A program made the translations under genes and the position numbers. From the IMG/VR virus record IMGVR_UViG_2579778702_000001: DNA of 23,294 bases; one strand, 5' to 3'. Positions 1,187 to 3,991 of this stretch are shown here, piece by piece (position 1 is the stretch's first letter; each line of letters starts with the position of its first letter). Source of the DNA: a virus (lineage: Duplodnaviria; Heunggongvirae; Uroviricota; Caudoviricetes). The notes under the pieces are model-generated. The model did no database searches and was not told the DNA's origin. It was given only the letters and a program-made list of their open reading frames with translations.

Positions 1187-3991
1187 TTATACCTGCGATA
1201 CGTTATACCATGTTCCGTTAATTAACTTTTGTATTGGTCTGAATACTGCCGGATCATCACCATCGACTTCACCGATAATACCAAGCCCCGTGATTACATG
1301 GCCTGATTTTTCATACATCACACCTTTCTTCATGGTCTGAACAACTCGTGTGCCAAGTCTGACATCTCTCACATAGCGGGAATCAAAGTTACCGTAATCC
1401 GAGGGGTTAACACGCCCTGTAATATTTATGGTTTTATTACTTTGAATGCTTCCGGAGACAAAGCGCATAACATGGACGTTATTAGCATAAACATCCAGAT
1501 TACCATCGCCATTTTGTTTAAAGCCCGTGTCATTATCACCCAATACAATCGAATTACCGCCAAGAGCACTGGATGTTCCGATACCCAGTGCACCATTCAG
1601 TTGACCACCAGATAACGGCAGTGCACCAACATCTCCTGCTGAAGGTTTTCTGGTGGTGGTGTAAAATTCGGACCAGTCGGCTTCAAAACCATAACCATCA
1701 CGGGCTGAACGATAAAAAATACCGCCATTTTTATAATTAATCCGAAACTGAGCTGCAGGACAACTTCCTTCTCCCATATAAAAATGAATAATTAACGTTG
1801 ATGCACCACTAATAGTTGCGTTATAGGCTCCGCTACTCCAGTTCCATCCAACTGCTTTATCATTCGCAACGGTGCTTCCTGTTTTCCCTAAGGCAAACGC
1901 ACCAACATGACTTGCTTTTAATGTGATATCGGAGGAACCATCAAAAACCACATTGCTTATTTTCCTGGCAGTTTTTAATTTTGCAGCTGTAGAAGCATTG
2001 CCGGATAGTTCACCAGAAAGGCCACCGCTGAATGTTTGTCGATTAGTCCAGGTATTCGCTGTACTGAGTAACGGTATTTTCTCCCCGCTTGTGCCGAGTT
2101 CTCGTAAACCGAGGTATTCGATAACGGCGGCAACGGTCGATTTCGCAAGAATATCCCGCCCAACTTTTGTCAGGGTTGCCAGACTGGCAACATCATTCCC
2201 CGTAAAATACGGAAACCTGTCTGCCGCAGTAGCAAGCCCGGCCAGCGCCGTCAGGGTGGCATCTTTCGGTTGCTTACCCGCAAGCGCGCTAGTCATGGTG
2301 GTCGCAAAATTCGGGTCGTTGCCCAACGCCGCAGCCAGCTCGTTCAGCGTATTCAGTGCGTCAGGCGACGAGTCCACGAGGGCAGCGATCGCAGCCATAA
2401 CATAAGCCGTGCTTGCGATTTGGGTATTATTCGTTCCCTGTCGCGCAGTTGGTGTTGTTGGCGTTCCGGTCAGTGCAGGACTATTTAAGGGCGCTTTCTT
2501 GTTCGTTTCACCCATTACCGCCTTAACCGCTTTTGGCGTTGCCGCCAGTGACTCGGAAGTGCTGTTGGTCGCACTGCTGAGCTGTACTATCCCCTTTTTC
2601 GTCGTGCTCGCATCCTCAAGCGCCACGGCGGATGCAATATCCTCTGCCCGTTTTGCCGCTGTCTCAGCGCGCGTTGCTGCAGATTCCGCCGTACTTTTGC
2701 TCTGAGCTGCTGCCGTCGCACTGCCAGCTGCCTCTGTCGCCTTCGTGGATGCCGTCGTGGCGCTACCCTTCGCTGCTGACGCCTGTCTGGTCGCCTCATC
2801 TTTTGAAGCAGACGCAGATGATGCCGATGACGCCGCCGAACTGGCTGACGATGCGGCTGCCGCCTTAGAGGAAGCAGCATTGTCTGCTGAAGTCTTTGCA
2901 TTTGTTTCAGAGGTTTTTGCTGCAGAAGCAGACCTCGCTGCTGCAGTGGCTTGCTCAGTGGCTTTGCCAGCCTTCGTTGTGGCTGTTGAAGCGGATGATG
3001 CGGCGCTTTCTGCCGATTTTCCGGCGGCGGTGGCACTGGCTGAGGCCTGCCCGGCACTTGTTGACGCGGCACTGGCAGATAATGCAGCCGCTGTTTTTGA
3101 ACCTGCCGCAGCTGAGGCGCTCTGTCCCGCTGCTGTTTCAGAAGACTTAGCGTTCGTCTCGGACGTTTTTGCCGCCTTCGCGGAATTTCCTGCCGCCGTT
3201 GCCGAGGAAGCTGCACTACTGGCACTTGATGATGCATTCGTTTCTGAAGATTTCGCTGCCTCTTTTGAGGCCGCCGCACCCCGTGCCGAGGTGGCAGCTT
3301 CTGACGCCTTCGTGGTCGCTGTGGATGCAGAAGTGGCTGCTGATTTTTGTGATGCTGCCGCATTCGTTTCTGACGTTTTCGCGGCACTGGCACTGGTAGC
3401 TGCCGCGCTTTTTGAGGACTCTGCAGCGGCAGCACTTTTCGATGCTTCACTGGCCTTTGTTGATGCCGCTCCTGCGCTGGAAGACGCTGACTGAGCCGAC
3501 GACGCGGCCTGTCCGGCTGACGTGCTGGCTGCGCGTGCTGAGCCTGCAGCATCAGTCGCATGGGTTGCCGCCTCACGGGCTGATGTGCGGGCATCGCTGG
3601 CTGACTTCTTCGCGGCTGCCGTGTTCTGTGCCACTGCGGACGCGTTACGCGCCACCTCTTCCACCATCAGTTCAAAACGGCGCAGTGCCTCTGGCCGGAC
3701 ATCATCCTCCGTCATGGCACCGAGAAAATCATTCAGCGTACCGGGTCGGGAATCTTCATACACGGTGATGGTCCCGGCATGTGAAGGCGGAAAACCTTCA
3801 ACCAGCAGGGTGACGCTGTACTGACCATGCTCAACATCCATGCTGTAACGTCCGGCTTCATCCGGATTTTCAGAGGCCACCGTGTTCACCACCACCGTGC
3901 TGCTGGTTCGTCTGGCCTTCAGCACAATGGTGCAGTTTTGTATTGGTTTTCCTGTGCCATCTTTCAGTACGCCTGAAATTTTTACTGTCAT
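1187..3991 (-). CDS. stf: side tail fibre protein, intact; lambda Stf-like N-terminal and shaft part with a non-lambda C-terminal tip
   Basis: 934-aa ORF. The N-terminus [28 protein letters not shown]...[14 protein letters not shown]...[14 protein letters not shown] and the Ala/Ser/Thr-rich shaft with KTSETNA-type repeats match lambda Stf as recalled. Homology ends after ...[11 protein letters not shown]; the last ~300 aa differ from lambda. Sits immediately downstream of lom, as in lambda. Confidence 0.92.
2099..2124. other. DNA invertase crossover site (gix/hix/cix/pix-like), 26 bp, inside the stf coding sequence
   Basis: Plus-strand TTCTCGTAAACCGAGGTATTCGATAA matches the Mu gixL sequence TTCCTGTAAACCGAGGTTTTGGATAA (from memory) at 22 of 26 positions, with imperfect dyad symmetry. 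On the minus strand it encodes VIEYLGLRE, the last stretch conserved with lambda Stf. Position is +/-1 nt. Confidence 0.7.

Follow-up and report, generated by a model that had tools for sequence, protein, structure and literature searches.

An intact lambda-type side tail fibre gene with a putatively invertible Mu-type tip cassette in a natural Escherichia coli prophage

Two described systems are closest to the locus considered here. The first is the side tail fibre (Stf) of Ur-lambda, in which cryo-electron microscopy (cryo-EM) has defined a collar (residues 1-91), a linker, a proximal coiled coil (102-393), a hinge (394-422) and then a distal coiled coil (423-525); twelve copies of the collar domain ring the gpV/gpM junction, and the receptor-binding end of the fibre binds OmpC (PMC12617516). 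The second is the G segment of phage Mu (S/U, S'/U', Gin, gix), where a constant fibre part is followed by a 26-bp site and by two convergent sets of tip and chaperone genes. The stf gene described here lies in IMG/VR record IMGVR_UViG_2579778702_000001, a stretch of 23,294 nucleotides referred to as the window, and resembles both. As in Ur-lambda, it is placed after J and lom, encodes a nearly identical collar and, as far as Ur-lambda residue ~526, homologous shaft, hinge and distal coiled-coil regions, and has an intact frame at the position of the frameshift known from lambda PaPa. As in Mu, a constant fibre part meets, at a 26-bp site, one of two convergent tip/chaperone sets.

The best explanation of the locus, to which a probability of about 80% is assigned, is an intact lambda-type stf combined with an invertible tip cassette of the Mu type. 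As judged from sequence comparison, the distal third of stf is part of a host-range cassette of the Mu G-segment type, with two alternative tips. The relevant features are the following.

1187-3991, minus strand: stf, side tail fibre gene; one uninterrupted, ATG-initiated open reading frame (ORF) of 934 codons, lambda-type in its proximal two-thirds and Mu/P2-type in its distal third
3710-3991, minus strand: collar domain, Stf residues 1-94; matches structure 9e7m (Ur-lambda Stf 1-94) with E 4e-48, nearly all residues being identical
2501-3589, minus strand: Ala/Ser/Thr-rich shaft, Stf residues ~135-497; homologue of lambda Stf's proximal coiled coil, extended by ~105 residues
2099-2500, minus strand: hinge and distal coiled coil, Stf residues 498-631; last lambda-like stretch, 75% amino-acid identity, lambda frame 3 (tblastn)
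2480-2500, minus strand: counterpart of the lambda PaPa frameshift position, where the frame continues uninterrupted
2099-2124, minus strand: 26-bp crossover site of Gin/Pin type, TTATCGAATACC-TC-GGTTTACGAGAA, at the junction of the constant and variable parts of stf
1187-2098, minus strand: variable part of stf, Stf residues 632-934, composed of V1a (1634-2098), a shared 281-nt repeat (1353-1633) and tip A (about 1187-1352)
651-1184, minus strand: tfa, chaperone paired with tip A, 177 residues; PF02413 with E 4e-34; two bases downstream of stf
628-647, minus strand: GC-rich hairpin and T run between the convergent tfa genes, terminator-like by consensus pattern match only
95-622, plus strand: tfa', second chaperone, 175 residues, inverted and silent in the current orientation; PF02413 with E 8e-38
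1-93, plus strand: tip B (stf'), of which the contig contains only the final 30 codons and the stop; 30/30 residues identical to the end of the truncated fibre fragment of genome OZ040035

Reading frame and lambda-like domains of stf

The stf gene is annotated as two ORFs, orf-401 and orf-314, in the lambda reference record. An earlier reading of the window, made from its letters alone (the sequence-only reading), had attributed this split to a frameshift in lambda PaPa and had noted a single 934-codon frame with an adjacent tfa in the window. Both statements hold: the ORF list places the frame at 1187-3991 and tfa at 651-1184, and the frameshift can be located. In a 670-nt DNA alignment to lambda, for which lambda 19650-22000 was used, the sole gap is one base missing in lambda at ~20842, corresponding to window ~2483; in tblastn the matching lambda frame switches at lambda 20825-20834, and the addition of one base there restores an ORF of 774 codons, which we take to be the published length of Ur-lambda Stf.

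An exact look-up of the Stf protein found it on record in one contig only, JMGT01000026.1 (assembly GCA_000687105.1), a bacterial draft-genome contig of which the window is the whole. The same 934-codon gene is present in two other genomes: OZ040035, the closest complete genome, 98% identical over window 1-4700, and L018, one of the relatives designated here by an L and a number. The ratio of nonsynonymous to synonymous substitution rates (dN/dS) of stf is 0.10-0.22 for the constant part, compared with five relatives, and 0.17 for the variable part, compared with gpH of the P2-like phage L-413C. Because of these values, and of the matches to PF08400, to 9e7m and to Mu fibres, stf is considered a real gene under purifying selection rather than a chance frame. 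Two ORFs overlapping stf, of 335 codons (2587-3594, minus strand) and 249 codons (2745-3494, plus strand), were dismissed as by-products of the GC-rich Ala/Ser repeats. Translations of the overlapping ORFs are rich in Arg/Pro/Gln or in Ala/Asp; the lambda frame 'orf206b', antisense to orf-401, may be an artefact of the same kind.

Stf retains the Ur-lambda domains through the end of the distal coiled coil. The Pfam family PF08400, 'prophage tail fibre N-terminal', covers residues 1-134 (E 2e-71), and is followed by the shaft, made up of 38% Ala, 24% Ser and 12% Thr. Stf residue 417 aligns with residue 312 of orf-401, both in blastp and in tblastn, and Stf 1-631 as a whole corresponds to Ur-lambda Stf 1-526, the difference being the ~105 extra shaft residues. 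A Tandem Repeats Finder scan of the Ala/Ser-rich shaft returned no real tandem DNA repeat, just a 2-copy 12-mer, so the extra residues are not a simple, recent tandem duplication; blastp of the shaft reveals old internal repeats. The first 908 bases are 86% identical to lambda stf in DNA and the later 670 bases 78%, and the homology stops at window 2109, which is lambda 21216.

Beyond this point the similarity to Ur-lambda ends. In addition to the longer shaft, the window differs from Ur-lambda in the distal 303 Stf residues, which are of the Mu S / P2 H type and not T4 gp37-like, in the chaperone, which is of the Mu U' type, and in having a distal part that is predicted to be invertible, as that of lambda is not. 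The gene is thus more than lambda stf minus its frameshift: only residues 1-631 are lambda-like, and the distal 303 are not.

Crossover site and alternative fibre ends

The crossover site has the architecture of an invertase site, two 12-bp half-sites separated by a 2-bp core, and lies at the constant/variable junction. It was compared with Mu gixL and gixR, which in the fetched Mu record both read TTATCCAAAACC-TC-GGTTTACAGGAA: 22 of 26 positions are identical, and the TC core is common to both. A degenerate pattern with 22 fixed bases has one match in the window and none in 100 shuffles, 0 being expected by chance. The exact Mu gix pattern, allowing up to 3 mismatches, has no match in the window, because the site carries 4.

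The invertase site coincides with a boundary of module exchange in fibre genes. Lambda stf keeps, at 21201-21216 (opposite window 2109-2124), only the left half-site, TTCTTGAATACC-TT, and then diverges. The match to phage 500465-3 was likewise seen to end at window 2104.

Distal to the site, the limits of V1a, the repeat and tip A were set by comparison with L010, L012 and L018. The distal 303 residues of Stf have no similarity to lambda orf-314 past residue 66 of the latter, and a lambda-type receptor-binding end (T4 gp37-like, OmpC-binding) is absent from Stf. Residues 637-934 are instead 87% identical to the C-terminus of L-413C gpH, the distal part is 85% identical to Mu S' over a 93-residue block (S' residues 164-256), and it matches the solved Mu tail-fibre chains 8ju3 and 5yvq. 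For tip A taken alone, identity is 93% to the L-413C gpH tip, 50% to Mu S and 39% to S'. Across the distal part of stf, the GC content falls from ~58% to 41-43%.

Two fibre-end and chaperone sets converge here, tip A with tfa on the minus strand and tip B with tfa' on the plus strand, where the start of tfa' follows the tip B stop by 1 nt and the contig end cuts tip B short. Tfa' has 91% identity to Mu U and 89% to L-413C gpG. For Tfa the identity to Mu U' is 86% overall; over the last 71 residues it is 100% to U' and only 32-34% to U/gpG, while its N-terminal 106 residues form a variant of their own, 76-78% identical to U, U' and gpG. Similarity to lambda Tfa is limited to 29% identity over 79 residues. 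The adjacent tfa of the sequence-only reading is thus present next to stf, though as a gene of the Mu U' type and not as lambda's; that reading had seen the intact stf and tfa, and missed tfa' (95-622), tip B (1-93) and the crossover site (2099-2124). A promoter scan gave fewer matches than the shuffled controls and was not used.

The chaperone that accompanies L-413C gpH, gpG, has a C-terminal domain of the Mu U type, and the chaperone of tip A has one of the U' type; tip and chaperone C-domain, by this comparison, are not inherited together. A view of the tip A/Tfa mismatch as a defect was not accepted: the pair is 100% conserved in OZ040035, and the part of Tfa reported to bind the fibre is its N-domain (PMC9608196).

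The complete cassette can be followed in OZ040035, where the order is stf (934 codons), tfa, inverted tfa', an inverted and N-terminally truncated fibre fragment, a second site and a recombinase-family ORF of 60 codons. The second site reads TTATCTAAAACCTCGGTTTACGAGAA, that is TTATCTAAAACC-TC-GGTTTACGAGAA; a second, inverted site is present in the relatives as TTATCTAAAACCTCGGTTTAC[GA/AG]GAA. The two arms of OZ040035 share an inverted repeat of 783 nt, 99% identical, and the alternative fibre ends differ only in their last 54-61 residues. The left contig end of the window falls 93 nt into tip B, ~90 nt before the point where, in OZ040035, the long inverted repeat would begin. Assembly breaks at repeats hide the rest of the cassette. 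The contig of L018 was seen to begin inside the distal crossover site.

A smaller repeat was also observed. The 281-nt block at window 1353-1633 is found, 95% identical, in both arms of four relatives (L010, L012, L015, L018) whose arms are otherwise unrelated, and the V1a/V1b pair occurs in various combinations with tips A and B, L010 having V1b with tip B and L012 V1a with tip B. These variable pairings suggest a second, nested layer of recombination.

Inversion in related prophages and source of the invertase

Both states of the cassette are found among related sequences. The exact Tfa' protein occurs on many contigs, which include both orientations; stf continues into tip A and tfa in OZ040035, L018 and the window, and into tip B and tfa' in L010, L011, L012, L014 and L015. 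Comparison of L018 (Stf of 934 residues) with L010 (Stf of 964 residues) shows that both carry the same pair of arms, 99.9% identical and oppositely oriented, the outer ends of the L010 arms having only 21 nt of the site in common. The clearest pair is formed by two Swedish isolates, E. coli 4/0 (L020, from a urinary tract infection) and 4/1-1 (L021, from faeces): their flanks are identical at 1545/1545 and 1549/1549 nt, and they differ by inversion of the 3.1-kb segment bounded by the 26-bp sites. The outer half-sites stay fixed and the inner half-sites move with the segment. At the junction, 4/0 matches window 1990-2230 with 100% identity. Inversion of the segment is observed in the relatives, and not in the genome of the window itself.

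The junctions of these inversions fall inside the 26-bp site. In 4/0 and 4/1-1 the site alone is common to the outer ends of the arms, which otherwise share an internal 66-nt patch of 73% identity. Junctions inside the site, in arms lacking other homology at their ends, point therefore to site-specific exchange at the core and not to homologous recombination. An inversion driven by RecA between long inverted repeats, with no part played by a site-specific invertase, would find ample substrate in the 783-nt, 99% identical repeat of the OZ040035 arms, and would be available if the genome of the window has the same distal arm. Such a route has a low probability, given that the arms of the L010/L018 and 4/0 versus 4/1-1 pairs have only the 21-nt site in common at their outer ends, that junctions lie inside the 26-bp site regardless, and that the site has half-sites of the Gin type and a TC core.

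The enzyme involved is less easily assigned. In OZ040035 and other relatives, the recombinase ORF beside the cassette is a stump, with 57/60 residues identical to the start of Mu Gin, and over the stretch between site and stump, DNA identity is 92% to Mu (gixR and the 5' part of gin) and 95% to a P88-type phage in which the invertase is complete. In 4/0 and 4/1-1 the gene is a 180-nt pseudogene, and the enzyme must therefore come from elsewhere in the cell. It is known that Gin, Cin, Pin and Hin can substitute for one another, and that gin contains the Mu enhancer within its 5' part; in 1985 Kahmann and co-workers are said to have placed a Fis-dependent enhancer in the first part of the gene.

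Several facts weigh against the proposed switch, or against a fibre still in use. Past the contig end would lie the second crossover site, what remains of the alternative arm and an invertase gene, if any, and the early and regulatory half of the prophage is outside the window. Only a 60-codon gin-like stump stands beside the cassette in 5 of 9 relatives (L009, L011, L014, L020, L021); in the other four no recombinase gene is called or annotated there, L018 stopping too short to tell. The switch would therefore need an invertase in trans. Fibre genes have decayed in some cases, with stf frameshifted in NCTC86, reduced by internal deletion to a 559-residue form in L011 and present as fragments in L013, and in E. 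coli 4/0 an IS21-like element, ISEc12, adjoins a truncated lom. Prophages of this lineage do become defective, to judge from these sequences, and an intact stf is not universal among them.

The recombinase counts, together with the single site in the window, would fit a cassette locked in orientation A, for want of an invertase or through a damaged distal site, with tfa' and tip B as dead cargo. We take this possibility seriously and consider it unlikely, since 4/0 and 4/1-1, which carry the same stump, differ by a clean inversion between identical flanks. In addition, both junction types are frequent among complete E. coli genomes: the state of the window, constant part joined to the V1a arm, is found in 330, and the distal flank joined to the V1a arm in 377. 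The junction of the constant part with the V1b arm is found in 45. Finally, tfa' is an intact ORF, identical to the tfa' of the relatives.

A tentative proposal, which we rate somewhat below even odds, would account for both the stump and the inversions. The prophage would have lost its own gin-type invertase while keeping both sites and the first 60 codons of the gene, so that its tip would be flipped in trans by the invertase of a co-resident Mu-, P2- or e14-like prophage; the nested 281-nt repeat would in addition recombine V1a/V1b with tips A/B. The segments of e14, Mu and P2-like prophages do invert during ordinary E. coli growth (PMC4272514).

Within the preferred reading, an intact lambda-type fibre with an invertible Mu-type tip, the following sequence of events is predicted. 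The collar domain (residues 1-94) would anchor Stf trimers at the junction of tail tube and tip, as in Ur-lambda, and would be followed by the lengthened Ala/Ser-rich coiled-coil shaft, the hinge and the distal coiled coil, to residue 631. In the current orientation the constant part would be fused to tip A and co-transcribed with tfa (651-1184), whereas tip B and tfa' (1-622) would face the opposite way, with no start of their own. A serine invertase would cut the TC core of the window site and of a second, inverted site past the contig end, and ~3 kb would flip. The constant part would then be fused to tip B, with tfa', and progeny would carry side fibres of another receptor specificity. We infer that the genome of the window still has the second site and an acting invertase. 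With Mu S/S' and L-413C gpH as models, the receptor is most likely a set of sugars of the lipopolysaccharide core, and not OmpC as for Ur-lambda.

Prophage backbone, fibre function and relation to described systems

The window aligns with lambda in a single block of 17.6 kb, in which window 5711-23294 and lambda 415-18002 have 97.1% DNA identity, and diverges from it beyond the block. The 18 late genes from A to I are all full-length and stop-free, with 91-100% amino-acid identity to lambda, and J is also full-length and stop-free; Nu1 is cut by the right contig end, at lambda 415. The order I-J-lom-stf-tfa is collinear with lambda, with stf placed after J and lom. Protein identity to lambda J is 96% over residues 1-831 and falls to 50% over the last 324 residues, which include the receptor-binding domain (window 4728-5710), and Lom (window 4055-4660) is 40% identical to its lambda counterpart. 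In view of the divergence of its C-terminus, the central fibre J may have a receptor other than LamB. Phages mEp460, ev099, Ayreon and the PhiR series carry the same module of J, lom and proximal stf at ~93% identity. The close relatives are all E. coli chromosomes, in which the prophage adjoins ompW-yciE-trpA or potB-pepT.

On these grounds, the window can be described as one half, that of the late genes, of a natural E. coli prophage which is closely similar to lambda and has a virion module almost like lambda's. The sequence-only reading had also pointed to a natural lambdoid prophage or isolate with a diverged J tip, to be given up if the window matched reference lambda end to end at near-100% identity, frameshift included. 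That view is supported by a backbone ~3% off lambda, by the origin from a bacterial draft genome, by the intact late genes and by the contrast between the C-terminal third of J and the rest of the protein; no such end-to-end match exists. DNA of laboratory lambda or Ur-lambda, from a contamination or a laboratory lysogen, would explain the 97% identity over heads and tails, and has a negligible probability: it is refuted by the alignments, in which ~3% differences are found throughout, the C-terminal third of J is only 50% and lom 40% identical, and distal stf and tfa are unrelated to those of lambda. Furthermore, Stf has 934 residues, against 774 in Ur-lambda.

The same data bear on a further alternative, a defective prophage whose late region is no longer expressed as virions and whose stf, devoid of a current function, has simply not yet decayed. 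Relatives at the same chromosomal sites do carry tfa fragments, pseudogenes, an insertion sequence element and broken stf genes, and the early region, with the lysogeny and lysis functions, is outside the window. This alternative is nevertheless rated distinctly unlikely. The late genes A to I and J show none of the stops or truncations of a decaying region, the dN/dS of stf is well below 1, and an ORF of 934 codons through a repetitive, GC-rich shaft would be lost quickly if not selected for. Functional side fibres had been considered probable in the sequence-only reading, and this part is retained: the side fibre is probably assembled and functional, because the frame and the late operon are intact, the gene is found in two other genomes, dN/dS is low and a chaperone gene lies directly downstream. 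What has to be changed is the model for it, since neither the receptor-binding end nor the chaperone nor the switch is lambda's own.

With respect to its parts, the proximal two-thirds of Stf can be placed in the lambda Stf family, and the distal third and both chaperones in the Mu/P1/P2/e14 class of invertible fibre ends. Differences from each described member of this class are evident. The cassette of Mu belongs to a baseplate fibre of a myovirus, that of the window to the side fibre of a siphovirus; the tips differ, Mu lacks the long repeats shared by the arms (783 nt in OZ040035, 281 nt in others), and in the close relatives of the window the invertase gene is either truncated or not called. 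The e14 P segment with PinE, and the stf-tfa-pin remnants of Rac and Qin in K-12, share with the locus the setting in a lambdoid prophage, the invertible fibre end and the two tfa genes, which there stand next to a Hin-family invertase. However, the e14 site, CTCTCGAAAACCTTGGTTTGGGAGAA, matches the window site at 20/26 positions, pinE has 74% DNA identity to the stump of the relatives, and the e14 fibre genes are short remnants, whereas the 934-codon stf and the late operon are intact here. Phages of the P88 type (Xuanwuvirus) carry both chaperones, at 86% and 90% identity, and have an intact invertase beside their cassette; unlike the window, they and the P2-like L-413C have myovirus baseplate fibres with an N-terminus of the P2 type, and L-413C is limited to one fixed tip.

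Ever since the e14 P segment was described, invertible fibre ends have been a known feature of lambdoid prophages, and the arrangement is nothing new in principle. The sole, mildly unusual point is that the switch appears to work in lineages whose own invertase gene is a stump. For the intact fibre, receptor specificity is not to be deduced from Ur-lambda and its OmpC, as its end is of the Mu/P2 type and can probably take two forms. For work with lambda-like prophages or engineered lambda particles, the gene is also a natural case in which a foreign tip, together with its own chaperone, is fused to a lambda Stf shaft at a defined point, Ur-lambda residue ~526. The comparison of 4/0 and 4/1-1 indicates that such cassettes still flip in clinical E. 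coli with a stump invertase, which bears on the prediction of host range from prophage sequence; if the switch does depend on the invertase of a co-resident prophage, one prophage would set the host range of another.

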